Virus record (IMG/VR): IMGVR_UViG_3300021121_000001
Coordinates: 32,001-96,000 of that record
Direction: 5' to 3' (one strand)
From: a virus
Lineage: Duplodnaviria > Caudoviricetes
Length of the DNA stretch: 64,000 nucleotides
Shown here: positions 4,063-33,800 of the stretch, in pieces
Numbering within the stretch: the stretch's first letter is position 1
Layout: each line of letters begins with the position of its first letter
The notes under the pieces: model-generated
Databases searched by the model: none
The model's input: the letters and a program-made list of their open reading frames with translations, nothing else
What the model was told of the DNA's origin: nothing
Made by a program: the position numbers and the translations under genes

Positions 4063-4077
4063 AAAATTACTTAATTA

Positions 4078-4085
4078 CAAACTTA
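4078..4085 (-). promoter_or_regulatory. Bacteroidota -7 element (TAAGTTTG) for the DUF559 gene
   Basis: Consensus match 15 nt upstream of ATG 4062. Confidence 0.55.
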
Positions 4086-4176
4086 ATGCTTATATTTGTG
4101 TATTCATAATTCATCAAAGTAGATAATTAAAATAATTATTTTTACTTATAGATTTGGAAATATGATTAATGTTTTG

Positions 4177-4184
4177 TAAGTTTG
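4177..4184 (+). promoter_or_regulatory. Bacteroidota -7 element (TAAGTTTG) with upstream TTTG, driving a putative sRNA
   Basis: TTTG at about 4153, roughly 20 nt upstream of TAAGTTTG; no ORF downstream. Confidence 0.55.
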
Positions 4185-4189
4185 TATTA

Positions 4190-4335
4190 TAGTAATTACT
4201 TGTTTGCCGAAACAAATAGTAACACTAGAAAACTGATATATTCAAATTATTATAAATTTTCTAGTTCTCTCACTGGTTTCGGACTTTGAGGGAACTTTGA
4301 ACCTGCCCCAAGTACATACTACTTGGGGTTTTTTA
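4190..4335 (+). ncRNA. Putative ~145 nt structured small RNA
   Basis: Upstream promoter; stems ACTAGAAAA/TTTTCTAGT and GTTCTCTCA/TGAGGGAAC; CCGAAAC/GTTTCGG complementarity; ends in an intrinsic terminator. Confidence 0.45.
4306..4335 (+). terminator. Intrinsic terminator
   Basis: CCCCAAGTA-catac-TACTTGGGG followed by TTTTTT. Confidence 0.8.
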
Positions 4336-4573
4336 TTCCCCGCCTGGAAGCAGTGTTAATTTTTTGATTAATTACAAAATAGGTTTGAAATAGCACCTTA
4401 AAGGTTACTCCTGTATATAGCCTAAAGCTTTTGAAATTTTTCCAAATGAATAAACGCCACCACTTTAGATCTCTATGAACAGTATGTCCAAATTTGTCTC
4501 AAAAGAGGTAGACTCTCTAAAATAAAAATTTCCTGGGGTGGCGATTTCTTCAATTTTTTGATGGAGGTAAAAC

Positions 4574-4613
4574 TATAAAACCCCCTAATTAATAAAAATC
4601 AGGAGGTTTTATA
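4574..4613 (-). terminator. Hairpin terminator after the basic peptide genes
   Basis: TATAAAACCCCCT...AGGAGGTTTTATA inverted repeat. Confidence 0.55.
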
Positions 4614-4629
4614 AGTTCTTGAGAATAGA

Positions 4630-4944
4630 TTAGCTATTCGCTCCTTTCTTTTTTCCTTGTACAGCACCATATGCTCTTATTCCTCCCACTCTTTTTGCAG
4701 GAGTTCCTGTAGCACCACCAGTCTTATACTTTTTCATTGCTTTCTTTTTGCCACCAAACTTAGCCATCATTTGAGCTGTTTGAGATCCTTCAGGACCTGG
4801 AGGAGGACCTTGTTGAGCCATTGGAGGCATAGGAGGAGCCATTGGAGGAGCCATTGGAGCTTTCCTAGCAGGAGCAGATTTCTTCATCATCTTTTTAGGA
4901 GCTGATTTTTTTGCTGCTGATTTTTTCATCATTTTCTTTTTCAT
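4630..4944 (-). CDS. Lys/Ala/Met/Pro-rich basic (histone H1-like) protein
   Basis: MKKKMMKKSAAKKSAPKK repeats, PMAP repeats and two K..GG motifs; start coupled to the upstream peptide by an ATGA overlap. Confidence 0.75.
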   Translation of the reverse strand: MKKKMMKKSAAKKSAPKKMMKKSAPARKAPMAPPMAPPMPPMAQQGPPPGPEGSQTAQMMAKFGGKKKAMKKYKTGGATGTPAKRVGGIRAYGAVQGKKKGANS

Positions 4945-5081
4945 TTCTTTGTTTTTTTCTTTGTTACTAATTTTTTTGTTTTACTTGTTGACGTTTCTTT
5001 AGATGCAAATTTTTCACCGAGCTTAAAAGCTTTCTTTGCTTTTGCAGCAGGTGTGAGTCTTTTTTTTATTACTTTTTTCAT
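4941..5081 (-). CDS. 46 aa Lys-rich basic peptide (not in ORF track)
   Basis: Hand-translated MKKVIKKRLTPAAKAKKAFKLGEKFASKETSTSKTKKLVTKKKTKK; its TGA overlaps ATG 4944. Confidence 0.7.
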   Translation of the reverse strand: MKKVIKKRLTPAAKAKKAFKLGEKFASKETSTSKTKKLVTKKKTKK

Positions 5082-5117
5082 TTTGAATAATTAAATATAA
5101 GGAATTTTTTAAAAATT

Positions 5118-5153
5118 AAAAAAATCCCCTGATGTATTTCTACATTCAGGGGA
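5118..5153 (-). terminator. Intrinsic terminator
   Basis: TCCCCTGA-TGTA...TACA-TTCAGGGGA hairpin with a T-run on the minus strand. Confidence 0.75.
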
Positions 5154-5188
5154 CAAACCAAATATAGAGAGAAAAGAACAATATTTTG

Positions 5189-5491
5189 TTACTTCTTGAT
5201 AATTGGAGATTGTACTTCTGTTACCAAATCAGATAACTTAGAAGAGTCAAGATCACTAACCGGAATAGTGAATGAAGAGCCTACATCTGCTGTTTTGTAA
5301 ATAGCATTTCCGCCTTCATCTATTGTAATAATAAAGAAGTTTTCCTGAGCCACGTTTGTGGGTCTCTTAGATTTTACGTCATCTATTACAGTCTGTAATT
5401 TAGTTAGTGAAGTATTCTGCTTGCTTGCTCTTTTATCAGGGGTGTTTGCTATTGTCAAATCCCATGAAGTGATTATTATTTTGAATGCCAT
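5189..5491 (-). CDS. Hypothetical protein (possible fibre chaperone)
   Basis: 100 aa ORF directly after the spike gene. Confidence 0.65.
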   Translation of the reverse strand: MAFKIIITSWDLTIANTPDKRASKQNTSLTKLQTVIDDVKSKRPTNVAQENFFIITIDEGGNAIYKTADVGSSFTIPVSDLDSSKLSDLVTEVQSPIIKK

Positions 5492-5501
5492 TTTTTTTAT
5501 T

Positions 5502-7886
5502 TTAAACTGTTATTTGTGTTGGAAAAGTAAATGCTCCAGAACTAAGGAGGGCTAAGTAATGCTGCCCAAATACTTCATCGTACATAGATTTGGTCGGTGT
5601 AGTCGTTTGCATATCAGCACTTGGATTAATTGTAAATGAAATTACCTCATCTATAAAGTTGTGGGATTGTATCTCTGCTGTTATATCGCAGTTTTGCACA
5701 CTACCTACGATGTCAATACAAGGCTGACCGCTATTATTGAAGAATTTGTTACCTGTGCTGTTTGTAATGTCGGTGAGGGTGTTGTTTGCTATGATATTAT
5801 ATTGGTTGTTTGCAATATTGCCAACCATAACATTACTATCTATCAAATTGCAATTGTTTTGGTTAATACCTCTAGCTACTTGATTTTCACTGATTGAATT
5901 TCCAACATTACTTGCAATATTACCAGCGGTTATTGTGTTGCTCAGTATGTACGTGCAATTATTATGAACGATTTGACCAGATATGTTGTTGTCATTTAAC
6001 AGATAAAAACTGTTGTTGCCTTGTATTTTTTCTGAAACTGTATTCCCAGAAAGTTGAACCCCTACATTTTCCGTTATATCTCCTGCAATATTATTATCTA
6101 ATCTCCCTACGATATTACTGCTTATAGAACCGCATGTATTTCCTAATATTGTTATGCCCGAATTGCCCCTTATTACTCCTGCATTGGAATTTGAACTTAT
6201 AACATAAACATTATTTTCAAATATACTGTTTGTATTAGAATTGGAGTTTATAATTATTCCAATATTGTTAGTTATAAAACCAGCATTAGTATTATTGGTT
6301 ATCTCATCAACTTGATTTTCGTTTATCTCTCCCGTATTTGAATTTGTATCAATTACTACTCCAAAATTATTAGTTATATTTCCAACGTTCGTGTTATTGG
6401 TTATATTGACAACATTGTTAGAGCCAATATCGCCACTATTCGTATTGTTTTGAATAATCGAGCCGACATTATTTAAAATACCTCCACTATTTGAGTTGTT
6501 TTCAATCAGATTACCAATAGTATTGTTTATAATATCTCCACCGCTAGTGTTATAGTTTATGTTATTGGCAATATTGTTTTGGATATTCCCAGAAATCATG
6601 TTTGAGTTTATGCTATTAGATATATTCCCGCTTAATTTAGCACAAGTGTTGTCTGATATTGTATCAGTAATATTACCTAGAATTTGGCTACAAACATTGT
6701 TTGTTATAAATGCAAATCCCTGATTGCCAATTATATTAATAGGGTCGCCATTATTATTATTACCCAATAAAAGTGAGCCAGAATTATATTGCAATTGGTT
6801 TATTGTGTTTTGATAACAAACAGAAATAATATTACCCGTTATAATCCCTATGTTTGTATCAATAATATTATTATTTTGAAAAGTACCAATATTATTATTC
6901 TGAAATGCACCTTGACCTAAATTAACAAAATTTAGTCCAGATACATTTATTTGATTATTCGTATTTGAATCACAAATTACCGTGTCATAAGCTATGGAAT
7001 TATAATTAGACTCGCCTAATTCCCCAGCCCCCTCAGTATATTCAGAATATGTAGAGCCATATGCAATATTTACCTGTAAACCTATACAGCCATTTCCAAC
7101 ATTAATTACAAAGTTGTCCAACCAATATGGTGAGCCATTCAAAAATTGATTTGCCGCCAATGGGCTTTTTATATATACGTTCTGTAAACCTCCAGTGTTC
7201 CAAAAGCAACCTATCTCAATATGACTTGCTCCAGATACAGGTTGAACAGACCAATAATTACCATTACCAACGGATGTCTCCCATCTCCAAAAAACTACAT
7301 TCCTCCAATCATAATCCCTAGCAACTTGATTCAAAGTGTCTTCTCTATAAGTTATTACACCTTTTCCTCCATTACTGGAATTTAATCCATCATAAAAACC
7401 ATCCATGACATCTGGTACATAATGTATAATATCCTGAGGGTAAGAAAGAGATTCTGCCATAGGAGATATGCTGGAAGGACTTGTAACTGTAACCAAAAGC
7501 TGCTCCGGTGTTCCGGCGTGAGGGATTTCTCCACCTATTCCTCCAGGACCTGTACCACTAAATTGTATATAGTGTACAGTTTGATAATCTGTAATAAGTA
7601 TTTTAGATCCTGGAATAAGAGTTCCTGAATTAAGTTTTGTAAGAAATTCTGAATACAGCATTTCAAAAACAGGAAAAGCTGGATTGGTCCATGTTCCTGT
7701 TTGATTTAGATATAAACTTGGATTTCCCTGGGGAGAGATTCCAAGACATTTCATTACTGTTTTGCAAAATGTACCATCGCAATTTGCACAATCATATAAA
7801 AGTCTATAAAGTTTTTCTCCATAATATCTACCAAAAGTAGCGTATATGGAAGACCTCTTCATTGGGTCTACATTTAATTCTGCCAT
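5502..7886 (-). CDS. Asn-rich beta-solenoid tail spike/fibre protein
   Basis: 794 aa. N-terminal fibre-like domain (LIPGSKILITDYQT), then a long I-x-x-N repeat region. Confidence 0.65.
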   Translation of the reverse strand: MAELNVDPMKRSSIYATFGRYYGEKLYRLLYDCANCDGTFCKTVMKCLGISPQGNPSLYLNQTGTWTNPAFPVFEMLYSEFLTKLNSGTLIPGSKILITDYQTVHYIQFSGTGPGGIGGEIPHAGTPEQLLVTVTSPSSISPMAESLSYPQDIIHYVPDVMDGFYDGLNSSNGGKGVITYREDTLNQVARDYDWRNVVFWRWETSVGNGNYWSVQPVSGASHIEIGCFWNTGGLQNVYIKSPLAANQFLNGSPYWLDNFVINVGNGCIGLQVNIAYGSTYSEYTEGAGELGESNYNSIAYDTVICDSNTNNQINVSGLNFVNLGQGAFQNNNIGTFQNNNIIDTNIGIITGNIISVCYQNTINQLQYNSGSLLLGNNNNGDPINIIGNQGFAFITNNVCSQILGNITDTISDNTCAKLSGNISNSINSNMISGNIQNNIANNINYNTSGGDIINNTIGNLIENNSNSGGILNNVGSIIQNNTNSGDIGSNNVVNITNNTNVGNITNNFGVVIDTNSNTGEINENQVDEITNNTNAGFITNNIGIIINSNSNTNSIFENNVYVISSNSNAGVIRGNSGITILGNTCGSISSNIVGRLDNNIAGDITENVGVQLSGNTVSEKIQGNNSFYLLNDNNISGQIVHNNCTYILSNTITAGNIASNVGNSISENQVARGINQNNCNLIDSNVMVGNIANNQYNIIANNTLTDITNSTGNKFFNNSGQPCIDIVGSVQNCDITAEIQSHNFIDEVISFTINPSADMQTTTPTKSMYDEVFGQHYLALLSSGAFTFPTQITV

Positions 7887-8143
7887 TATTGTTCTGTTTT
7901 TTGTTCTTGTTTCTTTGGTGTAAATTTGTCTGCAACTGTAGCTCCTGTCAGAGCTGCTACAAGTAATAAAAATCCATTAAACACATCAACTGCATATCTG
8001 TTTATTTCTTTAGCAATAAAAAAATCAGAAGTGACAATATAAGCACCAAGTATAACAGCAATGACAAAAGAAGAAAGCATTGTTAGAGATTTCCTGCTCC
8101 ACTTACCATCCGGGGATTTTAATGTATCATCAATTATTTTCAT
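7886..8143 (-). CDS. Putative holin (2 TM segments)
   Basis: Two hydrophobic helices, charged C-terminus, located in the lysis cassette. Confidence 0.6.
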   Translation of the reverse strand: MKIIDDTLKSPDGKWSRKSLTMLSSFVIAVILGAYIVTSDFFIAKEINRYAVDVFNGFLLLVAALTGATVADKFTPKKQEQKTEQ

Positions 8144-8424
8144 GACTTTTTATATTTATCATATTTCTGACTTGTTCCTGTATCAGGAAGAATTGCTTCA
8201 GCTCCTATAAAATTGTATGTAGTTTTTTTGTCAAATGGTTTATTTTGAAGATTTAAAATGTAGTCATGTTTGCCCACCATTATTTTTAAATTTTCAACAT
8301 CTTTCATAGTGTCTTTAAAGTCTTTGTGCATATCCATTACTAAGTAGGAAACTATGCCAAATAATATTGTATTAATGTAATCTTTTAATACTAATTTCGC
8401 CATCGGGTTTTGGTTTATTATCAT
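8140..8424 (-). CDS. Small membrane protein (holin/antiholin-like)
   Basis: One TM segment (ILFGIVSYLVM) plus coiled coil, between endolysin and holin. Confidence 0.5.
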   Translation of the reverse strand: MIINQNPMAKLVLKDYINTILFGIVSYLVMDMHKDFKDTMKDVENLKIMVGKHDYILNLQNKPFDKKTTYNFIGAEAILPDTGTSQKYDKYKKS

Positions 8425-8867
8425 TTAGTGAAATATAAATTTGCTTCTGCTTGTCGCCTTCGTACCAATCCAGGAAGCTGTTTACTTCCTGCATATATCC
8501 ATTTTTGAAATTCCTGTAATATACTTGGATCATTTGGATTGATATTTACTTTTTTCAAAAGGGTGCTTCCGGATAATGCAAGTGCTCCTAAATTATAAGT
8601 GAAAGAAACCAATGCATCAAACTGATGTTGGTTTATTTGACTTTTAACCAAAGAAGTTACACTTGTTTCAAATTTTGGCAAAGTTAATAAAAAAAGATCA
8701 TCTGCTCCTTTTTGACTTATCACATCTCCTATTTTAACTTTTGTTCCATCTGCATATCTTGTAGATCCCCAGCCTATTGTTGCTACATTTACAGAATCTA
8801 AATAAGCTTCCAATCTGCAAGATTCAAAAGATTTAATAAGATTTATTCCCTCCTGGCTGGTTTTCAT
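8421..8867 (-). CDS. Endolysin, GH24 phage lysozyme
   Basis: E-x8-D-x5-T triad (FESCRLEAYLDSVNVATIGWG), FDALVSFTYNLG, GLVRRRQAE. Confidence 0.95.
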   Translation of the reverse strand: MKTSQEGINLIKSFESCRLEAYLDSVNVATIGWGSTRYADGTKVKIGDVISQKGADDLFLLTLPKFETSVTSLVKSQINQHQFDALVSFTYNLGALALSGSTLLKKVNINPNDPSILQEFQKWIYAGSKQLPGLVRRRQAEANLYFTK

Positions 8868-8873
8868 ACTTTT

Positions 8874-9608
8874 TTATTTTAAATAGTGAACAATAAGTCC
8901 TGTTAAAATAGCCCCTACAGGTATTCCAATACCAAGTCCTATAAACAATGTCTTTGTCTGTTTAGATATTTTTGGTTTTACAACTATATTTTTTACATCT
9001 TCTGTCTCCACTTTTGGATTGGAAAAATGTATTTTAACCACTGGTTCTGTTTTAAACAGAGACTTTTTCTGGTCTGCAATTGTAATAGTTGTAGTGTTAG
9101 GAATTTTTAAATGATTTATAATCAGTCCCTCTGTTGTTATAGTTTCATCTATTTGAAATGTGCTGTCAATTTTAACAAAATTAGCAGGAAGAGGAAGTGC
9201 TTCAAAAGAATCCAATACACCATGAAGAGAATCTATCACTCTTATAAGATGTTCTGAATTTGAAAATTTGATTGTATCATGTACAATTTTAATTTCTGTT
9301 ACGACTTTTACATAAGACTGAAGATGTGTTGTTCCTGTTTGTTTCTGAATATCCTTAACAGTTTTATTGTCTTTATCTGCCAAAAGTTGAGTTTGTGTAA
9401 TTTCTTTTGTAGAATCTTTTAAAGTTTTTGTTGTAAAGATCATAGAATCCAGAAAGGTTTTATCAACCAATTGACTTTGAAGAGATTTTATATCTCTGGA
9501 TTTTTCACATGATTTTGTACCAAATAAAATTAAAAGGAGCAAAAGTATTATTATTATAGAACCTAAAAAGTAGTCTTTGAAAGTTTCCAGTGATTGAAAT
9601 AGTGTCAT
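8874..9608 (-). CDS. Putative spanin (membrane anchors at both termini)
   Basis: N-terminal hydrophobic stretch followed by KSC, plus a C-terminal TM segment; adjacent to the endolysin. Confidence 0.5.
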   Translation of the reverse strand: MTLFQSLETFKDYFLGSIIIILLLLLILFGTKSCEKSRDIKSLQSQLVDKTFLDSMIFTTKTLKDSTKEITQTQLLADKDNKTVKDIQKQTGTTHLQSYVKVVTEIKIVHDTIKFSNSEHLIRVIDSLHGVLDSFEALPLPANFVKIDSTFQIDETITTEGLIINHLKIPNTTTITIADQKKSLFKTEPVVKIHFSNPKVETEDVKNIVVKPKISKQTKTLFIGLGIGIPVGAILTGLIVHYLK

Positions 9609-9640
9609 ATTTTATAATTTTTAAATTTTTAAAACTCTGA

Positions 9641-9664
9641 CCTCCTCCATATTTCAGGAGGAGG
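9641..9664 (-). terminator. Terminator hairpin
   Basis: CCTCCTCC-atatttca-GGAGGAGG. Confidence 0.65.
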
Positions 9665-9708
9665 CTATGAGAAAGGAGCTAAACCAAAAAAAGCTGCTTT
9701 TTTGTATC

Positions 9709-11283
9709 TTATATTACTTGATATGTAAATGAAAAATAAAATGAATTAACTGCTGTATTTGTTGCGCTGTATTTAAGAAGCACTCTGTTATTTCCAGGAT
9801 CTGCTACAATAGCTGCACATTCTCTTGATACTGCTGGCATCACTGCTGTTCCTCCACATTGATAATCTAAAGTAAAAGCAGAAGAAACTGGGATTGTTAT
9901 TCCAAGAACAGTGTCTGCATTTGCAACAGGATCAATATCAATTTGACCTGAAACTGTAACAACTGCTCCAACTCTCATCCACTGACAAGTATATGTAGTT
10001 GAAGCACTTACATTTGTTATATTTGACGAAACAGGAAGATATACTCCAGAACTAATTATAGTTCCAAAACTTAAATTCTTACTTCCATCTGTTTGCAATG
10101 TTGCACCTGCTGCCCCATCTGCACTTGGAAGAGTAAAACTATTTCCTCTGAATTTAAAAGCTGTCACATCATTAGGAAGAGCAAATTGATAATCTGCTGT
10201 TGCTTCTGCACCAGAACCTAATGCTATTCTATGTATTGCAGTCCCACCACCAGAAGAAGAAGGATTTGCACCATGCCCTACATACGTATTATCGCTTCCT
10301 GAGGTATTATATATGCCTGCTGAAACACCTATTGCTGTATTTTTATATCCTGTATTTGTATTAAATAAACTTTGAAAACCAATACATGTATTATCCATAC
10401 CTGTACTCAATGCAGTTAAAGCACTTGCCCCTATTCCTGTATTTAAAGTAGCAGAAGGAACAGAATCAAAAGAATTCAATCCAAAACTTGTATTAAAATT
10501 AGAAAGATTTATTCTACCAGCTACAGTGTTATTAGTTTTAAAAACAAGATCAGAAGCATCTGTAGTTCCTACAAAATTAGTTCCAGGAGTAGTTCCTGAG
10601 TTTCCTGTAAGAGACCAACTTGTCAAAGCTGTCAAAGAAGAAAGAGGAACATCTGAAGGAGTTGTTGTACCTCCTGATATATTTGCTTTTACAGTGTGAT
10701 CAGCCATTGTAGCCAAAGAAGCATTTGCCACTGTATTTGCAGAAAGTTTAGCTCCATTTATACCTGTAGCAAGTTCTGTATCTGTTACAGATCCTGCAAT
10801 AAGTTTTGCAGAACCATCTATTGAATTAGTAGCTATTTTAGCATTTGTAAGAGAAAGGTTTATTCCCTTAAGACCAAGATCAATAGACCCATTTGGGATA
10901 TTTGCAGAAACATCTATTGTTCCTAAATTTGAAGAACTGATTATATCAGAATCAGCAAAATCCATATGAAGTTCTACATCCCAAGAAGATCCATTCCATG
11001 TAGCTTCAGCATCCCAGTTTTTAACAAGCTGTGCCTGGGTTATGTTAGTTCCAAAAAGTGTAAATGTTTTAGAGTTTGTAGTGATGTCCAGAGTAGCCCT
11101 GTAAACAAATTTATAACTTGTTCCTACAGAAGGAGTTCCTGTTGGAACAATTCCATAATTACCAATAGCTATTGCAGTACCTTGAAAGTAGTATAAGCCA
11201 TAAAGACTTGTAGTGTCAAGTGAAGGAATTTCAGTTCCTGTACCATTAAAAGTGATTACAAGTGTTAATTGATTGAGTGGCAT
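9709..11283 (-). CDS. Tail fibre protein
   Basis: WSLTGNSGT...NFVGTTD..DLVFKTNN segment, NTxIG repeats, TLPSADG, and C-terminal WMRVGAVVTVSG fibre motif. Confidence 0.8.
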   Translation of the reverse strand: MPLNQLTLVITFNGTGTEIPSLDTTSLYGLYYFQGTAIAIGNYGIVPTGTPSVGTSYKFVYRATLDITTNSKTFTLFGTNITQAQLVKNWDAEATWNGSSWDVELHMDFADSDIISSSNLGTIDVSANIPNGSIDLGLKGINLSLTNAKIATNSIDGSAKLIAGSVTDTELATGINGAKLSANTVANASLATMADHTVKANISGGTTTPSDVPLSSLTALTSWSLTGNSGTTPGTNFVGTTDASDLVFKTNNTVAGRINLSNFNTSFGLNSFDSVPSATLNTGIGASALTALSTGMDNTCIGFQSLFNTNTGYKNTAIGVSAGIYNTSGSDNTYVGHGANPSSSGGGTAIHRIALGSGAEATADYQFALPNDVTAFKFRGNSFTLPSADGAAGATLQTDGSKNLSFGTIISSGVYLPVSSNITNVSASTTYTCQWMRVGAVVTVSGQIDIDPVANADTVLGITIPVSSAFTLDYQCGGTAVMPAVSRECAAIVADPGNNRVLLKYSATNTAVNSFYFSFTYQVI

Positions 11284-11286
11284 CTT

Positions 11287-12216
11287 CTATATTTTTCTTT
11301 CTAATTTGATTATTAATTGATCAAGAATAACAGAATCACCATGTGGATCAATAGCTATTCTTACATCATTTGTATTTATAGTTACAGGAGTTGTATATTG
11401 ATAAATCTCAGAAAGATTTGAAACTATACTTTCTCCATATTTAGGAGCACCTGGCTTTGAAAGAAGTGTATCTATTTTTGCATAGTTTTTAAGTTGCAAA
11501 GTACTTGTAGCATCTGCCACAACTGTTGAAATTATTTCAAAATCAGTAATAGAAAAAATATTACAAACTGCCTGACTTCCTCCAATGCTTGTAAATTGAT
11601 TATAAGCAGTGCCATCAGTAATTCTTATTTCCTGTATGTTGCACATAGAAAGATTTCTTCTTATTGTGCCTTTAAATGTAATAATGTCCCCCGCTTTTAG
11701 ACTGTAGCTTGTAAGATCAAGAGATTGGAAATAACCTGTTGTCACTGTAGGAGAATTGAATATATTCAAAAGCACTCCTGATTTTTGACTGTTTGTAACA
11801 GGACTTGCAGCATATTCAATATTGATTGTTCTTCCACAGCTTGTTACAGAACCTGTTGTAACTGTTAGACTGCTTGAAGTTATATCTTTTACAGTTGTTC
11901 CAAGGCAAGTTTCTATTGCAGAAATATCATTTTGTATATTGCTTATTTCTGTAGTTATTGCAGGATCTAAACCTATTACATTACTTGTAACAGTTATTTG
12001 TCCAGATGCTCCTGTATAAACTATACCTGAAGGAGGAGCAATATTACAAATGGCATTATTTATATTTGCCAGAATTGTATCATATGGATCTCCTTTAGTT
12101 GCAGAAATACATGGAAGAGGCAATCCCTGATAAAATACACAATTCCCTTTTATTTGTTGAGGGCATCCACAAAGGTCTTGACATTCACAAGGTTGAGGGC
12201 AATTATTTTGACACAT
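11287..12216 (-). CDS. Cys-rich fibre/virion protein
   Basis: N-terminal C-x8-CVFYxG-x2-LxC module shared with the next two genes. Confidence 0.65.
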   Translation of the reverse strand: MCQNNCPQPCECQDLCGCPQQIKGNCVFYQGLPLPCISATKGDPYDTILANINNAICNIAPPSGIVYTGASGQITVTSNVIGLDPAITTEISNIQNDISAIETCLGTTVKDITSSSLTVTTGSVTSCGRTINIEYAASPVTNSQKSGVLLNIFNSPTVTTGYFQSLDLTSYSLKAGDIITFKGTIRRNLSMCNIQEIRITDGTAYNQFTSIGGSQAVCNIFSITDFEIISTVVADATSTLQLKNYAKIDTLLSKPGAPKYGESIVSNLSEIYQYTTPVTINTNDVRIAIDPHGDSVILDQLIIKLERKI

Positions 12217-12225
12217 TTTAAAAAA

Positions 12226-13038
12226 TTAATTTGTTTCTATTGAAAATCCATCTAATGACAACCACCAATCATCCTGCAAAGATCCTGTATCTTGGGTCAT
12301 TACATAAAGCCAATCTGAAGAAAGAGAAATGCTTCCATCAGACTTAAATATGAATGTCACCCAATATACACGTTGCATTCCTCCACTTAATGTGTACATT
12401 CCTATTGGAACAAGTCTTGTAAATTGAGGTTTGAAAGAAGTTGACACCAATGTATTACTAACAAGCATTACAGGTATTTGAACATCTCCTGTTAAAAGTC
12501 CGGCAGGTACTTTTACAATTCCTCTAAACCATATTTTTCTAATTACGGCTCCACAATATTCAACTGCATATTGAGGATTTTGTCCAACTCCAAGACTTGT
12601 TGAAGTATCTCCGCTTACAATATGCATTGCTCCAGGAACTTGAAAAGCCTCTTGAAGAACAAGGTCATGCCATTGCAGAAGAGAGCAGCTTGAAGAAGAA
12701 GCATCAAGTCTGAGGGTTTTACAATTTCCATTTGTAACAACAGTTTTTGTAATTCCTGTTCCTACAACTATTTTATCATTTAAATATCCGCAGCAAGCAT
12801 CTCCTGAATCTATTCTTGTTCCAAGTTTAGAATCTATTTTACCAAGACTTACTGAAATAGTGTCTCCATAATTTACTCCTGAACATGTCAGATTAGACCC
12901 TGAATAGAATACACAATTAGAAGGCAATATATCTGTACAGGTTACTTCTGGAGGACATGGGCCATTGCATTTAGTAGCACCAATTAAACTTGGAGTTTGA
13001 CTAACTATACTTTGTTGACATTCGGGGCAATTAGACAT
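12226..13038 (-). CDS. Cys-rich fibre/virion protein
   Basis: Shared CVFYxG module, GYLNDKIVVG repeat and a C-terminal fibre-tip-like domain. Confidence 0.65.
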   Translation of the reverse strand: MSNCPECQQSIVSQTPSLIGATKCNGPCPPEVTCTDILPSNCVFYSGSNLTCSGVNYGDTISVSLGKIDSKLGTRIDSGDACCGYLNDKIVVGTGITKTVVTNGNCKTLRLDASSSSCSLLQWHDLVLQEAFQVPGAMHIVSGDTSTSLGVGQNPQYAVEYCGAVIRKIWFRGIVKVPAGLLTGDVQIPVMLVSNTLVSTSFKPQFTRLVPIGMYTLSGGMQRVYWVTFIFKSDGSISLSSDWLYVMTQDTGSLQDDWWLSLDGFSIETN

Positions 13039-13048
13039 TTTTTAATTA

Positions 13049-13711
13049 TTAGCAGTTAGGTAAACAATATGTTTTAGCTGTTATAGTGGCTATATTTTGT
13101 TGCAAAGTCAAATTAGCAGCTAACAAACTTGAAACCTGTGTAGCTAGAAAATCAACCTGACTTTGCAAAGAATTTATTTGAGATTGAGCTGTACTTGCCA
13201 AAGTTGTTGCATTGTCAGCAGCAGTTCTAGCAGCACATACACATGAAACTAATGTATTTATAATAGATTTTAGGTCATATTGTTGTGGACCTGTTCCACA
13301 ATTAGTAGCGCAGCAGCAAAGATTAACATCTGTATAAATAGGATTTATATTCTGGATAGATTGTATAATTCCATCTATTTGAGATTGCTGACCACAGGTG
13401 AGTCCACCAAGATATGAAAATAATCCTTTTATTGTTTTATCATCATAATATTTCCAGCCTTGTGTAATACCTGAAGCACATGGGGCAGGAAAGACAAAAC
13501 TTGTAACGTCCAAAGATGTATCTATACTGCATATTTCACCAAATAGGTTTGCTACAACATCAGTGATGCTGCTATCTCTGCAAATTTGAAAATTTGGATC
13601 AGAGGGGCATGTTAAAGTATCTCCTTTATAAAAAACACAATTCGAACTTACAGGAGGGTTACATCTTGAATATGTAGTTGAACTATTATCACAACCTGGG
13701 CAATTACTCAT
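13049..13711 (-). CDS. Cys-rich fibre/virion protein with coiled coil
   Basis: Shared CVFYxG module; 17 Cys in 220 aa; C-terminal heptad repeats. Confidence 0.65.
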   Translation of the reverse strand: MSNCPGCDNSSTTYSRCNPPVSSNCVFYKGDTLTCPSDPNFQICRDSSITDVVANLFGEICSIDTSLDVTSFVFPAPCASGITQGWKYYDDKTIKGLFSYLGGLTCGQQSQIDGIIQSIQNINPIYTDVNLCCCATNCGTGPQQYDLKSIINTLVSCVCAARTAADNATTLASTAQSQINSLQSQVDFLATQVSSLLAANLTLQQNIATITAKTYCLPNC

Positions 13712-13712
13712 C

Positions 13713-13973
13713 TTAACACTGGTTTAATTTATTTTTAATTAAAGTTACAACATCCTCTATTTTAATATCATCATAGCAACTGTGACATTTTAGAATTTTT
13801 TCAAGGATGTTATGAATATCTAAAAGGTCTGTATAATCAGAAGCTTTACTTTTTATACCAAGATTATAAACACTGTTTTTGTAATCCCTTGTAGAAACAA
13901 GAGCTATTTTATTGTCAACTTCTTTAAGAAGTCCACATATAAATTTTTCATTATAATTAATATCTGTGTTCAT
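13713..13973 (-). CDS. Hypothetical virion protein
   Basis: ORF track 13713..13988; likely start MNTDI. Confidence 0.6.
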   Translation of the reverse strand: MNTDINYNEKFICGLLKEVDNKIALVSTRDYKNSVYNLGIKSKASDYTDLLDIHNILEKILKCHSCYDDIKIEDVVTLIKNKLNQC

Positions 13974-14511
13974 GGCAATCGCACTCAATTAACAAATCAA
14001 GAATTTTGTCAGCAGCTTTATAAAGTTTGCCTGCCTCCTTCACATTACAAGAAGCAGCATTTACTTTAACGCCATAGATATACACTCTTGCTCTTTCAAG
14101 TTTTTCTAATTTTTCAGGAGAAAAACAAGCTTCACAAGGCTGTACATTAAGTTTCAAAAAAGCTTTGTCATATTTGCACTCCAGCAGGCAGGTTCTATAC
14201 CAGGTTTTCTCAAACCAGTATTGCTCTTCAGGACATATACTTATTTTAGCAGTGTATAGTCCATCAGGAAGAGTTGTAAGTAGATCAAGATCAAGAACAT
14301 TTGTAATACCAAGAGTATTACTATTTAGAATTGTAACAGCATTTTTGTAGAAATTTAGCTGTACAGGAGTGTTATCAAAAGGAGTGATCACTTGCAAACT
14401 TGCATTTGCAACAGTTTGACTTGAACTGTAAAACGAAGTGTCATATAGTCCTAATGTTTTACAGTTATTTGTGTCAAGTATATCAAAAGATAATTTAGTA
14501 CTTTGAATCAT
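13957..14511 (-). CDS. Putative tail hub/structural protein
   Basis: LPDGLY motif, Cys-rich C-terminus, structural operon context. Confidence 0.55.
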   Translation of the reverse strand: MIQSTKLSFDILDTNNCKTLGLYDTSFYSSSQTVANASLQVITPFDNTPVQLNFYKNAVTILNSNTLGITNVLDLDLLTTLPDGLYTAKISICPEEQYWFEKTWYRTCLLECKYDKAFLKLNVQPCEACFSPEKLEKLERARVYIYGVKVNAASCNVKEAGKLYKAADKILDLLIECDCHEHRY

Positions 14512-14621
14512 TTCTTTTTTCTCTCTATTACAATTTTAAATCTTTTTGTTCTGCATTTAGGACATTTTCCTCCTATGCACTCACACCCACAACCCACGAC
14601 ATGACCACATGAACATCTCAT
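14508..14621 (-). CDS. 37 aa Cys-rich peptide (not in ORF track)
   Basis: MRCSCGHVVGCGCECIGGKCPKCRTKRFKIVIERKKK; its TGA overlaps ATG 14511. Confidence 0.7.
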   Translation of the reverse strand: MRCSCGHVVGCGCECIGGKCPKCRTKRFKIVIERKKK

Positions 14622-14658
14622 AACTAATTGATTTTATTTGGTTTATAAATATCATAAA

Positions 14659-15078
14659 TTAACAACTTGGAAACAATACCGGTAGAGGTATAGATACCAA
14701 AGTCACACCTATTGTCTGAGAACTATTTGTTGGTAGAAATAATTCTAAAGTTACATCATATGTACCATCTCCAAAAAAACTAGGAACATGAAAAGTCATT
14801 TCATTTGAATCATTCCAAGTTACAGTGGTGAGAACAACATTAAAAGGTGCTCCAAAATTCCAATATAAACTTACCTGACCTTCTCCAAGAAGGTTAACAG
14901 CATGATCCAAAGTAACTGTCATTATATAATCTCCATCTCCACAAACAGCAGTTATATTCTTTACATTCAAAGTGCAACATGGAGAAAGTATTTCTGAAAT
15001 TGCTTTATAAATAGTTTTATTAACCAGATTTTTTATGAATGCAAGAATGCTTTGTTTTTTAGGTGTTGTAATTGTCAT
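14659..15078 (-). CDS. Putative head fibre/decoration protein
   Basis: N-terminus paralogous to 15093..15539 (SILAFxKNxVxKxxYKxIxxxLxPCC); beta-rich C-terminus. Confidence 0.5.
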   Translation of the reverse strand: MTITTPKKQSILAFIKNLVNKTIYKAISEILSPCCTLNVKNITAVCGDGDYIMTVTLDHAVNLLGEGQVSLYWNFGAPFNVVLTTVTWNDSNEMTFHVPSFFGDGTYDVTLELFLPTNSSQTIGVTLVSIPLPVLFPSC

Positions 15079-15092
15079 GATTTTTTTAATTT

Positions 15093-15539
15093 TTAGTCAC
15101 AGTTTGGAACAGTCAAAACATGAGCGATACTTCTATGAACTACATCTAAATCTAAAGGAAGCAAAGTTACAACTACAGACATAGTGAAGGGATTTGGTCT
15201 GCTTCCACCATCAAAAGAGGATTGAAGATTTCCATTCCAATGCCCACTGGCATCTAAAGTTATAGTTTTTATAACACCTCCTGTAGGGTAATCAACAGAT
15301 GTTAAAAACAACTCCACTGTTCTTCCTGCAAAAGTTACATCTGTTATTGTAACATTATTAAAAATTATTCCAAAAACATCCCCTGTAAAACCACATGAAA
15401 ATGTGTCAAATATCACTGTTGTCTTACAACAAGGATTCAAAAGAACCTCTATATCTTTATAAACTTTTTTAGAAACAATATTTTTTACAAAAGCAAGAAT
15501 AGAATTCTTAATATTTGACTTTGAAGAAATAAATGCCAT
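15093..15539 (-). CDS. Putative head fibre/decoration protein
   Basis: Same paralogous N-terminal module as 14659..15078. Confidence 0.5.
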   Translation of the reverse strand: MAFISSKSNIKNSILAFVKNIVSKKVYKDIEVLLNPCCKTTVIFDTFSCGFTGDVFGIIFNNVTITDVTFAGRTVELFLTSVDYPTGGVIKTITLDASGHWNGNLQSSFDGGSRPNPFTMSVVVTLLPLDLDVVHRSIAHVLTVPNCD

Positions 15540-15570
15540 TTTATTTAATGTATTTAATTTAATTAAAATA

Positions 15571-15611
15571 AAAAAGGAGGTGAGGTTTTAAGTACCCTCA
15601 ACCTCCTTTTT
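15571..15611 (-). terminator. Intrinsic terminator (potentially bidirectional)
   Basis: AAAAAGGAGGTGAGG...CCTCAACCTCCTTTTT. Confidence 0.8.
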
Positions 15612-15633
15612 GGGTTAATATTTAGTAAGAATA

Positions 15634-17589
15634 TTATATTACTTCAAGAGCAAGTGGAGAATTTGCTGCTACAAAAGCAGAGATTGTTGATTCATATTCT
15701 GAACCTGAACCCACTGGGAAGAATACACTCAATTCAAATACTTGTTTTTGACTTGTTCCAAAACCACTTACAGCAGAAGCTTCAGCAGGGAATGTTTCAA
15801 ATTCAAGGATGTATTGGTCATAGATACCATCCAGATCAATTCCAAGTTCATAATCAAATGCATCTCTTTCTGCTGCATTCTTTCTCCAAGGCTGGTTGAA
15901 TTGGAAGTTAGAATCAATTACTTGATCAGCAACTACACGACCTTTACCTTTTGGATATTTAACATTCTTGATCAGAGTATGAGGAACATCAGTTTCACAA
16001 AGAACTGAGTAGTCATTAGGATCAGGATTTCTTGTAGACAGAGTGATGAACAAAGGTTCAAATTCATAAGCCACTTGTTTCAAGAAACATTCTTTAGCTT
16101 TTCTTTGCTCATATACAGATTCAAAACGAATACCTGTTACACAACCTGTTCCATAATTCAAACCTGGAACTTCCGTCCAAACCAAACCATTAAAAGGAGC
16201 TGGAGCTTCAAAATGCCATTCTACCTGTGCACATTTTTCAAAATCTTTATTTGTAGATTCTACAGTGAGAGAGTATTGAGAAACACAAGTGTCTGCATTT
16301 GTAGTTACAAGACTAACACCCATTCCATAAACAGCTTGAAGAGCTGAGAGAGTATTACCTGTGCAGTCATTAAGAATGCTTATTACAAATTGTTTTTCAG
16401 CAGCAGTACCTTCTTTGCAAGAATGGAAAGTATAAGTTAGAGGAGAGTTTGCAGTACATACAGATTGGTCAGTTGCAATTTGTACAACAGAGTCTGCAAG
16501 AAGAGCAGTTACAGCAGTTCCGGCAGCAACAACTATTTTAATATTTGCTGTAGAACCATTATAAGAAAGGAATTCTTGAGCAGTTGCAGAATATGCAGCA
16601 CCTACTGTAGCAGCATAAGTAGCTCTTGCGCCAGAGGTAGTGAAGTTTTCTGTACCAGCAAGAGGTCTTGCTACAACCCAAATATCTGTTGCAGGCTGTG
16701 AAGTGTATCCAGAAGGACAACCTGAAGGACAAGTATCACATGTAACCAGAACTGGATTTGGATTTATAACTACAGGAGCAGGAGTTACACTAAGAATAGC
16801 ACCTGCAAATACTGTTTCATATGTAGAGAAAATACCTTCTCTTTTTACACGTTTGATTATTTGACCTGGATTAGAAGCTTCTACAGCAGCTTGAGCTACA
16901 CCAAGAGCAGCAAGATCACCAGCATCAGGAATTGTTATTGTCCATACACTATAAGTAGTTGTAGGCAAACCTGATGGAGTGTCACAATGTACAAGCTTAG
17001 TAGCTTTTACATAATCTGTGATTAGTTGACCACCAATGAGTTTTCTTGTACTGAAAGCATCAAGAACTGCATCTGCTACAATGTTTTGATCAAAATAGTC
17101 ACCACAGGTATCTACGCAATCAGATACACAAGGAAGTTGAACAGTGAATTGTTCAGTCCATGTTGCATAGTGAGTTTTAGGAGAATCTCCCAAAAGGTTT
17201 GCTATTGGAGCACCTGAGAGAGTAACCCAGTATGTAAATGATTTACCTTGTTTAACAGTGAGACCTTTTGTAGTGTCTACACCATCATAACCAAGAGTTA
17301 CAACCATTCCAGAACCTTCTTGTCCAGATACTTTCTTCCAAGACTTTACAGCTCCACCTTGGATTACACTTGATTTAAAAGTGTGGTTGCTTTTTGCAAC
17401 ACCATGTGGGTATATTACATCAGGAGTACCTTGAGCAACAAGGATTGATTTAGCAGTGAGACCACTTGTAGCTTGATATGTTTTACCATCAAATACACCA
17501 ATCTGACCAATTCCCAAATCTACAGTTGTTCCAGATGATGGGAGGTCTGATGTACTGGCTGCAAATACGTAACGATAACTATTTACCAT
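15634..17589 (-). CDS. crAss-like auxiliary capsid/structural protein
   Basis: 651 aa; GQIGVFD N-terminal motif; position after MCP and ring genes; followed by a strong terminator. Confidence 0.6.
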   Translation of the reverse strand: MVNSYRYVFAASTSDLPSSGTTVDLGIGQIGVFDGKTYQATSGLTAKSILVAQGTPDVIYPHGVAKSNHTFKSSVIQGGAVKSWKKVSGQEGSGMVVTLGYDGVDTTKGLTVKQGKSFTYWVTLSGAPIANLLGDSPKTHYATWTEQFTVQLPCVSDCVDTCGDYFDQNIVADAVLDAFSTRKLIGGQLITDYVKATKLVHCDTPSGLPTTTYSVWTITIPDAGDLAALGVAQAAVEASNPGQIIKRVKREGIFSTYETVFAGAILSVTPAPVVINPNPVLVTCDTCPSGCPSGYTSQPATDIWVVARPLAGTENFTTSGARATYAATVGAAYSATAQEFLSYNGSTANIKIVVAAGTAVTALLADSVVQIATDQSVCTANSPLTYTFHSCKEGTAAEKQFVISILNDCTGNTLSALQAVYGMGVSLVTTNADTCVSQYSLTVESTNKDFEKCAQVEWHFEAPAPFNGLVWTEVPGLNYGTGCVTGIRFESVYEQRKAKECFLKQVAYEFEPLFITLSTRNPDPNDYSVLCETDVPHTLIKNVKYPKGKGRVVADQVIDSNFQFNQPWRKNAAERDAFDYELGIDLDGIYDQYILEFETFPAEASAVSGFGTSQKQVFELSVFFPVGSGSEYESTISAFVAANSPLALEVI

Positions 17590-17619
17590 TTTTTGTTTAT
17601 TTTAAAATTTTTGTTTAAT

Positions 17620-18285
17620 TTATTCTTGTGAGTTAGTTCTATCTTTAGCAATGTTAAGATTATTTGGATCTTGGAAGTCTCTCATGAACTCTTCTGCTGC
17701 CAAGTTTATAATCTGATCAACATATTGTTCTGAAATTTCTATTCCTATATTAGTGGAAGGAGAACCATCCAAATGTGTATAGCCTTCTATATCTATATTA
17801 GGAATAACTTTGTAGTATTCAATTGTTAAATTATTAACAACAAAGTCATCTCTATACACTCTTATATATCCTCCTTGAAGAGAGCAAAAGCTCCATTCAA
17901 AATCAAAATCAGGTTTATAATTTAAATTGAATCTCAGAGTGTTCTTGTCGTGATTTTTTACTTCCCTTAAAAAGATTGTTTTTCTACAAGATTCTCTTTG
18001 GGCTTCACAATTTGCAAGAATCAATTCATAAAAATCAAAGGGTATTTCAAATTCTGTATATCCATCAATGTTTATACCATTTGTTAGATTTACAGTTTTA
18101 ACTATCTCCCAGATTGAATCTATTAGAATAGAATCTTTATCTTTGAGATGGCTTTCAACCCACCTGTTTTTTACTTCATTAAATATAAGAACAAACCTAT
18201 CCTTGTCAATGGCAATATTCCCCTGACTGTTTCCTTTATTTACTTTTAAAAGAAACTTTATGTATATAAGTTCTGGAGATACCAT
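17620..18285 (-). CDS. crAss-like ring (head-tail connector) protein
   Basis: IEYYKVIP...EISEQYVDQIINLAAE motif; conserved synteny. Confidence 0.6.
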   Translation of the reverse strand: MVSPELIYIKFLLKVNKGNSQGNIAIDKDRFVLIFNEVKNRWVESHLKDKDSILIDSIWEIVKTVNLTNGINIDGYTEFEIPFDFYELILANCEAQRESCRKTIFLREVKNHDKNTLRFNLNYKPDFDFEWSFCSLQGGYIRVYRDDFVVNNLTIEYYKVIPNIDIEGYTHLDGSPSTNIGIEISEQYVDQIINLAAEEFMRDFQDPNNLNIAKDRTNSQE

Positions 18286-18291
18286 TTAACA

Positions 18292-19263
18292 TTAACCTAT
18301 TGCGTTGTGTTTTTTCTTTCTGTTTTCAACTTCACTTCTCAACTCACCAAGCTCAATTTCCATTCCTGCTGCCAGGAGATACAATATGCTATCTTGTTTA
18401 GTCTTTTTGTAATTCACATGACCTCTATGATAGTATCCATCTGAGCTAACCCTGATCACTCCCATATTTATTCCTTGTTGGAACATATTGTGTATTGCCA
18501 ATGTAGCATTGTCAAGTTCACAAGCCTCAAGGAATTCTGTCATAGTTTTACCTGTCTTGTCATTAAAGATTGCTTCCTGCATCCTCATTTCAAGTACTTC
18601 ACTATCAACTTTTTGTTTGCTAACAAGACCAAGTTTGAAGGCAACTTCCCAAGCTCTTTGTTTGTTTTTACTTTCGTCAAACAATTTAGACATTTCAATA
18701 TTAGCCTTGCGACTTTTCTGAATTTTAGATTTGTTAAATTCAGTAGTTTCTTCAGAGGTTGTAAGATAGAATTTAGAATTTCTATACTCCGGTTTACTAA
18801 TGTCAGCTTTACTTTTAGGGAAATTTGGATTGTTCATTATAAGAGCTAAAGAAATAGCATCTCTATAATTCTCAGCAGGACGAAGTTCATTGCCATGACC
18901 ATTCACCCTTATTTTCATATCTGCACCAACTTCTATTTCCACCATGCAGATTTCACTCAGCCATGCTTCAGATGTAGGTTTCAGATAATCAGGAACTCCT
19001 ATAAGAGATTCAAGTTCCTTTCTTTTTTCAATTATTCTTTCTTGAGCTTCTTTTTTCTTTTCAGAAGGAAGTCTTAGAACGTCAGGAGCATTTTCATCAA
19101 ATCCTGTCCTGTCATATTTTTTAAGTCTATCATTCCAAGAAGCAGAGATAGCTTGAGTGATACCTGGAAATGTACCTAGCCCTTTTCTTGCTAGTTCTTC
19201 ACTATCTCTGCTTGGAATTGCTTCTATGCGATAGACTTTTGAGAAATCTATAAAATCTGTCAT
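18292..19263 (-). CDS. crAss-like conserved protein downstream of MCP
   Basis: 323 aa; RTGFDE motif; synteny. Confidence 0.6.
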   Translation of the reverse strand: MTDFIDFSKVYRIEAIPSRDSEELARKGLGTFPGITQAISASWNDRLKKYDRTGFDENAPDVLRLPSEKKKEAQERIIEKRKELESLIGVPDYLKPTSEAWLSEICMVEIEVGADMKIRVNGHGNELRPAENYRDAISLALIMNNPNFPKSKADISKPEYRNSKFYLTTSEETTEFNKSKIQKSRKANIEMSKLFDESKNKQRAWEVAFKLGLVSKQKVDSEVLEMRMQEAIFNDKTGKTMTEFLEACELDNATLAIHNMFQQGINMGVIRVSSDGYYHRGHVNYKKTKQDSILYLLAAGMEIELGELRSEVENRKKKHNAIG

Positions 19264-19304
19264 TTTTATTTGGTTTATTTGGTTTATTGTTCTTTGGAGG
19301 CAGA

Positions 19305-20966: not shown

Positions 20967-20986
20967 TTTGTATTATTATTTATGCT

Positions 20987-22132
20987 TTATTTAAATTTAA
21001 ATCCTTGAGGAGCACCTGTTTGTTTACGCTTTTCAGGTTCTTTGGATACTACTCCAGAAAGAGGATTACCGCCTTCTTTTAGAAAATTAAATTGCTTTTT
21101 TGTAGCTTCTGCTTCTGCAATCTTTTTATCTTCGTAAGCATCCATGTTCTTGATGAACTTCAGGAACTTCTGATATTTTTTAGGATCTTGGTTGATTTCA
21201 TTCATCCTCACCATGAATTCAGAATATTTATTTCCTTGATTGTCTTGAAATTTATAATCGTATATAAATTTATCAAGTTCTTTTTTTTCTCTTTCAGCAA
21301 GATTGGGATCTTTATAAATATTTTCCCTAACTGCTTTATTAAAAGCCTCTGCTCTTATTTTTCTATCTTGAGCAATTGCTTCTTGCTCTTTTATCATCTC
21401 TTCTCTTTCAGATTCTATAGCTGAAACCAATTTTGATTTACAGTCTTCAGCTTCTTCTTTAAAATCAGAATCACCGGAATCTTTAAGTCTTTCTATATGT
21501 CTTTTGATCTTTGCATCGCTCCAATCAATAGATTTGTAATATTCTTTTATGGCTCTTTCCTGACCATATTCATCAGAAGTATCAAGAGAGGAAACTTCTA
21601 ATTGTTGTGTATAATTACCAACAAAATCATCTACTGTACCTCCTGCTTTTAGAAAATCTACAAGTTGATTTGCAGTATCTGGAAATTGTGATCTTTCTTC
21701 AAAAATAATTTCTTTTGCTGAATTTTCTGCTTGTGCCTTCCAAAGAGCTTGAAATGTCTCTTCAGAATAGTCTATGTCCTCCCTTCCTTCAAAATCTTTC
21801 CAAACTTCTGTCTCTACAAGAAAATCTGCAAAAGCCTTATAGTCAACCTTATCAGCACTTAGCTTTTCAGGTTCTTCTTCTTTTTCTTTTTCAGATTTTT
21901 TATTGTTTTTATTAAAAAAACCAAGAGGGTCATGAGCATCATCTTTATCATCCTCTTCTTCAGTTTCTTCAATAACTACATCTTTAGGTTTTTCACCTTC
22001 ATCTGTAGCTACTGGTTTAGCTTTTTCTTTATCTTCTGAATTGGGCTGAATTGCTCCAGGGAATTGTTCAGGGTTAATTTGAATACCCTCATCTTCTCCG
22101 AAGTAGAAGGGTTCTACGTTAACTTTTGACAT
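20987..22132 (-). CDS. Acidic scaffold-like protein
   Basis: Highly acidic and helical; lies between portal and MCP. Confidence 0.65.
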   Translation of the reverse strand: MSKVNVEPFYFGEDEGIQINPEQFPGAIQPNSEDKEKAKPVATDEGEKPKDVVIEETEEEDDKDDAHDPLGFFNKNNKKSEKEKEEEPEKLSADKVDYKAFADFLVETEVWKDFEGREDIDYSEETFQALWKAQAENSAKEIIFEERSQFPDTANQLVDFLKAGGTVDDFVGNYTQQLEVSSLDTSDEYGQERAIKEYYKSIDWSDAKIKRHIERLKDSGDSDFKEEAEDCKSKLVSAIESEREEMIKEQEAIAQDRKIRAEAFNKAVRENIYKDPNLAEREKKELDKFIYDYKFQDNQGNKYSEFMVRMNEINQDPKKYQKFLKFIKNMDAYEDKKIAEAEATKKQFNFLKEGGNPLSGVVSKEPEKRKQTGAPQGFKFK

Positions 22133-22241
22133 ATACTATATTTGGTTTGTAATACAATTATACAAAAAATTATACAATTTAACAAATAGAGTGTATTAAA
22201 TAATGTACACCCTATGTTTAGCTTTATTGAATAATTTCTGT

Positions 22242-33377: not shown

Positions 33378-33683
33378 GTATTATTTCTTTTTCATAACTT
33401 GTTGATTTTAAATATTATACAGGTATCTTGAACTCCAGTCAAGAAAAGGTTATCTTTTCTTAAGACTAGAACTATACAGTGCACTCCAGCTCTATAGCAT
33501 AATTGTCACACCACTATAGATTTAACTTCGCTTTTATTTTGAAGTCTCTAAGCACCTTGAAGTGATCTCCTATCTTAAAGGCAAAATATGTCCATTATAA
33601 AGGTGATTTAATCCTTCTTCTCTCTGGATATTATTCCAAGTTGATGAGGTAATTATAAGAATTTATTCTTAACTTAGGGACAT

Positions 33684-33800
33684 AAAAAAAGCCTGAAGAT
33701 TTACCAACAGGCTCTAATTTGTCCTGCTGCTAAGGAAATCCTTAATTCTATTTAGATTTTCATCTAAATATATTAACAGTAGCAACAGACAAAATTTATA
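33684..33800 (-). ncRNA. Putative ~115 nt hairpin small RNA
   Basis: TATCTTTG -7 box at 33814-33807, a long irregular hairpin, then an AGCCTG/CAGGCT terminator with T7. Confidence 0.5.

Follow-up and report, generated by a model that had tools for sequence, protein, structure and literature searches.

The 3'UTR that closes a tail/lysis message of a freshwater crAss-like phage carries a short G/U-rich tract that is the exact reverse complement of the start region of a head-assembly gene, and six related phages keep the same mirror relation while the letters change. The tract was located at 5167..5153 on the minus strand and is complementary to minus-strand 22150..22136, which ends 3 nt before the ATG at 22132 of a scaffold-like gene. 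The favored interpretation, inferred from sequence alone, is that the tract is an anti-leader seed embedded in a 3'UTR that lowers translation of the scaffold-like and related genes by RNA pairing, with a probability of about 0.55. The 15-nt match taken alone is not significant, and its significance comes only from the relatives.

The 64,000-nt stretch of DNA analyzed, designated the window, comprises bases 32001-96000 of a 115,327-bp single contig that closes on itself with a 100-nt overlap. The G+C content is about 0.31. The first 32 kb of the window are transcribed on the minus strand and encode a portal (PHROG 6547), a 381-aa acidic protein (20987..22132), a capsid protein, tail and lysis genes and an exonuclease. 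The 381-aa gene lies between the portal and capsid genes, and "scaffold" is a positional label only, since Pfam and PHROGs gave no family for it. Relatives carry the Pfam Crass_capsid and CrAss_Ring domains, so this is a crAss-like phage. The sequence comes from freshwater metagenomes, and no RNA run was listed for this phage among the public runs. Start regions lack Shine-Dalgarno motifs and are A-rich, and the promoter-like element upstream of the 381-aa gene (22155..22186), consisting of TTTG (22183-22186), a 20-nt spacer and TATAATTG (22155-22162), fits Bacteroidota. A Bacteroidota host is therefore likely but not proven. The closest cultured relative by capsid protein (33% identity), Leptolyngbya phage Lbo-JY46 (PP438436.1), infects a cyanobacterium. 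That phage also has A/C-rich leaders and a G/U-rich tract just before a late terminator (33670-33722), but only an 8-nt exact complement, so the layout may extend beyond this clade.

The 3'UTR of the 100-aa gene, whose stop codon is at 5189-5191, runs from 5188 to 5153 on the minus strand, and the tract occupies its last 15 nt, between the stop codon and an intrinsic terminator (5118..5153). The terminator consists of a hairpin at 5125-5153 (RNAfold, -16.9 kcal/mol) followed directly by seven T at 5118-5124. The 15-mer occurs nowhere else in the window. The remainder of the 3'UTR (5168..5188) is C/U-rich and contains a 12-mer complementary to 14528..14517. Thus, both complementarities described in the original prediction, the 15-nt match to the scaffold leader and the 12-nt match to the leader of the 14511 gene, are correct.

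Whether such matches exceed chance was examined first in this genome. The window holds 33 15-mer inverted-repeat pairs, compared to 18.9 +/- 6.6 in dinucleotide shuffles. When every 3'UTR (63) was compared with every start region (134) of the 115-kb genome, a best match of 15 nt or more appeared in 28% of the trials with shuffled UTRs, while matches of 12 nt or more numbered 12, with 7.4 expected. Neither the 15-mer nor the 12-mer exceeds chance in isolation, so that the shuffled-control test named in advance failed for this genome alone. The 12-nt pairing, which also lies inside a small Cys-rich ORF, was not seen in relatives and was treated as chance.

The tract is not unique. The 10-mer AAACCAAATA occurs ten times in the genome, six of them in the 10.8% that is intergenic. 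Four of these are in the sense orientation next to start codons, one at the 381-aa gene, two in tandem before the 323-aa gene that follows the capsid gene, and one before a 37-codon Cys-rich ORF. The leader of the 323-aa gene (19264..19304, minus strand) has two tandem AAACCAAAUA tags (19267-19285) and constitutes a second target class. The same tag is found at 14635..14644 (minus strand) in front of the Cys-rich ORF (14508-14621, ATG at 14621), an unannotated frame with CxC, CxC and CxxC motifs, the stop of which overlaps the ATG of the 184-aa gene. Several relatives carry the tag in unannotated DNA at a similar offset downstream of the scaffold-like gene. The capsid gene lacks the AAACCAA-type tag. 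The reverse orientation in a transcript occurs in intergenic DNA only at the tract. The shorter TTGGTT/TTTGGT motif occurs in late-strand non-ORF DNA of this phage at exactly two places, the tract and the 3'UTR of the 524-aa fibre gene, where the motif forms the G/U-rich loop (9679-9692) of a small hairpin, SL1 (9672..9700, minus strand), which shares the core UUUGGUUU with the tract. SL1 is followed directly by an intrinsic terminator (9631..9671, -19.2 kcal/mol plus a T-run). The tract itself has no flanking stem of its own.

The 381-aa protein has 64 homologues, few of which lie on long contigs. Using exact-protein look-ups and walking along contigs, both leaders and late terminators were assembled for five relatives, here named by their contigs, L002+L004 (71% identity), L021+L023 (67%), L003+L020 (65%), L022+L024 (58%) and L006+L008 (42%). 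A sixth relative, L119, was picked blind through a homologue of the 651-aa protein and confirmed the prediction. The contig of another relative, L005, ends before its own mid-operon terminator. IMG/VR held only two relatives, megablast against phage records found nothing, and a pattern scan for the hairpin-terminator junction returned 88 hits, by rough estimate about the chance level, none of which was a true copy. Among 40 of the 830 differences between contigs of four freshwater runs and 5000-22300, none fell at either arm, a sample too small to be informative.

Upstream of the 381-aa gene, the relatives conserve the same promoter-like layout, TTTG-N20-TAnn(A/T)TTG, followed by a short A/C-rich leader whose exact sequence differs between genomes. 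The tail genes next to the terminators are not homologous between genomes, yet every genome has a G/U-rich tract just upstream of a late terminator. In the late-strand non-ORF DNA of this phage and of the relatives that carry the motif, TTGGTT/TTTGGT occurs almost only just upstream of terminators, the sites being 5153-5167 and 9679-9692 in the window, 12636 and 18519 in L004, 12555 in L023, 12321 in L024, 17377 in L020, two sites in the L006/L008 record and 17561 in L119. The mid-operon hairpin type appears in all of the genomes. The end-of-operon linear type, to which the tract belongs, was present in only 3 of the 5 genomes where that terminator was seen, namely in this window, in L004 and in L008, but not in L023 or L024. 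The hairpin is kept in the six relatives with stems that differ in sequence but retain pairing through compensatory substitutions, as judged from single-sequence folds, and the adjacent terminator stem also shows compensatory changes. RNAalifold on a MAFFT alignment recovered only the terminator, because a bulge misaligns the first hairpin. Gene calls in the tail region of L020 (13400-20762) are fragmented into many small ORFs and a fibre-like N-terminus is cut by a stop, which may indicate stop-codon recoding or assembly errors.

Co-conservation in the relatives was clear. Against composition-matched shuffles, the tract of each relative matched its own 381-aa or post-capsid leader with P <= 0.005, whereas the capsid-gene leader, used as a negative control, gave P between 0.05 and 1. 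In the window, the tract pairs over 15 nt with the scaffold-like leader and over 10 nt with both tags of the post-capsid leader, and in relatives the post-capsid leader is often the best complement of the G/U tracts. Unbiased scans of each roughly 30-kb block placed 7 of 9 top complements in start-codon leaders, which make up about 5% of the sequence. The variants are mirrored, in that the genome whose leaders read AAACCAACA has tracts with UGUUGGUUU, the one with AAACCAAUAAA has UUUAUUGGUUU, and the one with ACCAAAUCAAA has UUUGAUUUGGU. In a 7 x 7 table of longest exact complements, the cognate values (15, 14, 13, 11, 11, 13 and 13 nt) were the row maximum in all seven rows, with an off-diagonal mean of 9.05, and the identity assignment was the single best of 5040 permutations. 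When the tracts were reversed, which keeps composition and repeat structure, the effect disappeared (1794 of 5040). Both partners are of low complexity, and this control also showed that two relatives have reverse-symmetric seeds whose match lengths are uninformative by themselves. Under independent drift of tracts and leaders the diagonal would have no advantage, and it is therefore very likely that tracts and leader tags co-evolve.

The most economical explanation is RNA-RNA pairing. In this view, the tract and the SL1 loop are two anti-leader seeds kept in the 3'UTRs of the tail/lysis messages immediately upstream of intrinsic terminators, and both are the complement of the A/C-rich tag, which sits within about 25 nt of the start codons of the scaffold-like gene, the gene after the capsid gene and a few other late genes. 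The seed would be exposed as part of the full message or, more likely, as a stable terminator-protected 3' fragment, and would pair with the unstructured leaders, hindering 30S loading, so that accumulating tail/lysis transcripts turn down head-assembly proteins. The 381-aa leader is predicted to be 85-93% unpaired, and the 15-bp duplex, about -18 kcal/mol, covers -18 to -4, inside the 30S footprint, so repression is the expected sign. A strong, perfectly bidirectional terminator at 15576..15606, an equivalent of which sits at the corresponding position after the roughly 650-aa gene in relatives, and the terminator at 9631-9671 separate the head-gene unit from the tract, which points to action in trans or a need for read-through. 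The tract is predicted to be free in a short 3' fragment but paired with upstream coding sequence in longer RNA, which would fit activation by processing, although this prediction is weak. No promoter-like element lies upstream of the tract. What the analysis establishes directly is limited to the sequences, their positions, the terminators and conservation with co-variation, while it is by inference that the RNAs are expressed and meet, that a small RNA is released and accumulates, and that the effect on the targets is repression.

Some results weigh against this model. A scan of the whole genome by duplex energy did not single out the scaffold leader (-19 kcal/mol). The best partner of the 3'UTR was a sense copy of the tag at 111897-111911 of the full contig (outside the window, equivalent to 79897-79911), at -27 kcal/mol, and some coding sites also scored better than the leader. 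This third copy is 14 of 15 identical to the scaffold-like leader, with a matching flank, and forms the last codons of a 94-aa ORF just before the bidirectional terminator that closes the late block. It could be a decoy or a relic of duplication. A test for G.U over A.C tolerance did not separate RNA-level from DNA-level constraint. The message that ends in the tract encodes a tail-fibre-like cassette of 794 aa and 100 aa (5189..7886, minus strand) that is absent from the crAss-like relatives and not homologous to their genes at this position. The 100-aa protein is 80% identical to one beside an 855-aa protein in unrelated phage contigs that carry DnaB, T4_Y16D and ProQ_C-like genes, where no UTR follows it. 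This points to horizontal exchange of a receptor-binding module, and the tract at this terminator may therefore be evolutionarily young. Directly after the terminator are two very Lys-rich small proteins (46 and 104 aa; 4630-5081, minus strand), while in L004 a 43-aa Lys-rich ORF precedes the corresponding terminator, and beyond them is a 567-nt gene-free gap (4063-4629) with a plus-strand terminator at 4306-4328.

The original prediction, that a terminator-protected 3'UTR segment at the end of the spike/lysis operon may feed back on capsid assembly genes about 17 kb away, is thus supported in part. The general idea of a terminator-proximal segment of the tail/lysis genes antisense to head-gene start regions gains real support from the relatives, while the second pairing with the 14511 leader does not, the element proved to have a better-conserved hairpin copy and a sense copy at the far end of the late block, and the scaffold and Bacteroidota assignments require the qualifications given above.

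Of the alternatives, all unlikely on present evidence, one accepts the pairing but assigns it a different outcome, either 5'-3' pairing within read-through late messages, or between messages, that protects the 5' end and stabilizes or activates the target, or modulation of termination at the adjacent hairpin in the manner of nut/put elements. The tag begins at the inferred +1 of the scaffold message, at about 22150, so the duplex would cap the 5' end, the tracts always abut terminators, and the sense copy upstream of the last late terminator pairs best with the tract. However, with two strong terminators between leader and tract a single message needs read-through, the tag of the post-capsid gene is internal to a polycistronic message, next to the ATG and not at a 5' end, and pairing upstream of a hairpin is not expected to change its formation.

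A second alternative is that the tag and its inverted copies are binding sites of a phage-encoded DNA-binding protein, or short repeats homogenized by gene conversion, so that co-variation arises without RNA pairing. Concerted change of all copies in a genome is what a protein-site model predicts, the G.U versus A.C comparison did not favor RNA, and a sense copy lies beside a terminator. On the other hand, orientation is strictly tied to function in seven genomes, the tag being in sense next to start codons, with or without a promoter nearby, and in antisense only in 3'UTRs just before terminators. Moreover, the antisense copy is displayed in the loop of a hairpin whose stem co-varies, which is an RNA feature, and the capsid-gene leader lacks the tag. 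The remaining possibility, that a T/G-rich 3'UTR meets an A/C-rich leader by coincidence, that only the SL1 hairpin, if anything, is functional and that the tract arrived with or beside the exchanged cassette, is allowed by the genome-wide chance level, the roughly 19 15-mer inverted pairs expected per window, the recent exchange of the upstream cassette and the absence of the tract from L023 and L024, but is opposed by the restriction of the motif almost entirely to sites before terminators, by the core shared between the tract and the cognate hairpin loop in all three genomes that have both, by a shuffle P below 0.0005 against the pre-specified leader and by the finding that the other 10-nt hits of the tract are also leaders.

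Two other readings were rejected. The TATATTTG box inside the tract resembles part of a Bacteroidota sigma-A type promoter (TTTG at -33, a 19-21 nt spacer and TAnnTTTG at -7), but there is no TTTG at the right distance, the start would fall in the terminator stem and the box is absent from the tracts of relatives. An antisense ORF was excluded because only 16-21 codon frames exist on the opposite strand. No tRNA was found in the window, and no Rfam family matched at gathering thresholds.

The closest precedents are 3'UTR-derived autoregulatory sRNAs, with which the tract shares its position between a stop codon and an intrinsic terminator on the transcribed strand and a seed complementary to the initiation region of its putative target that co-varies in relatives. 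In OppZ and CarZ of Vibrio cholerae (PMC7398697), the seed lies in the 3'UTR of an operon, is protected by its intrinsic terminator and pairs with a translation initiation region in the same gene cluster to repress it, linking the output of late cistrons to the translation of earlier ones. RNase E processing, Hfq binding and repression were demonstrated experimentally there, whereas in the phage the putative targets lie in another transcription unit, several leaders share one tag and there are two seeds per genome. GibS and FopS of Bacteroides thetaiotaomicron (PMC11697453), from the likely host phylum, have a single-stranded seed plus a terminator, act on SD-less translation initiation regions and include one 3'UTR-derived member, but they are host-encoded multicopy sRNAs with their own promoters that bind RbpB, and have no sequence relation to the tract, Rfam, where the FopS consensus was deposited, giving no match. 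In icaR of Staphylococcus aureus and hbs of Bacillus subtilis, a 3'UTR motif is complementary to the ribosome-loading region at the 5' end, but these pairings act within a single short message, while here 17 kb and two terminators separate the partners. Full-text searches found no description of such elements in crAss-like phages.

A more far-reaching reading, which remains doubtful, is that the crAss-like phages of this clade run a post-transcriptional morphogenesis circuit in which the shared A/C-rich tag acts as the translation-start signal of the head-assembly genes, the G/U seeds in the 3'UTRs of the tail-fibre and lysis messages titrate it in trans, so that tail/lysis expression throttles head-protein synthesis, and the sense copy at the end of the late block is a decoy that buffers the seeds. 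If the pairing works as proposed, it would supply a naturally co-varying seed/tag pair amenable to simple reporters in Flavobacterium or Bacteroides, and would concern hosts that start translation without Shine-Dalgarno pairing, where A-rich open leaders are the main signal (PMC6847099, PMC7797042). It would be an RNA-based link between the tail/lysis and head modules of a lytic phage, in a phage group whose gene regulation is largely unknown, and would show that 3'UTR-embedded regulators, known from bacterial operons, are also used by virulent phages.
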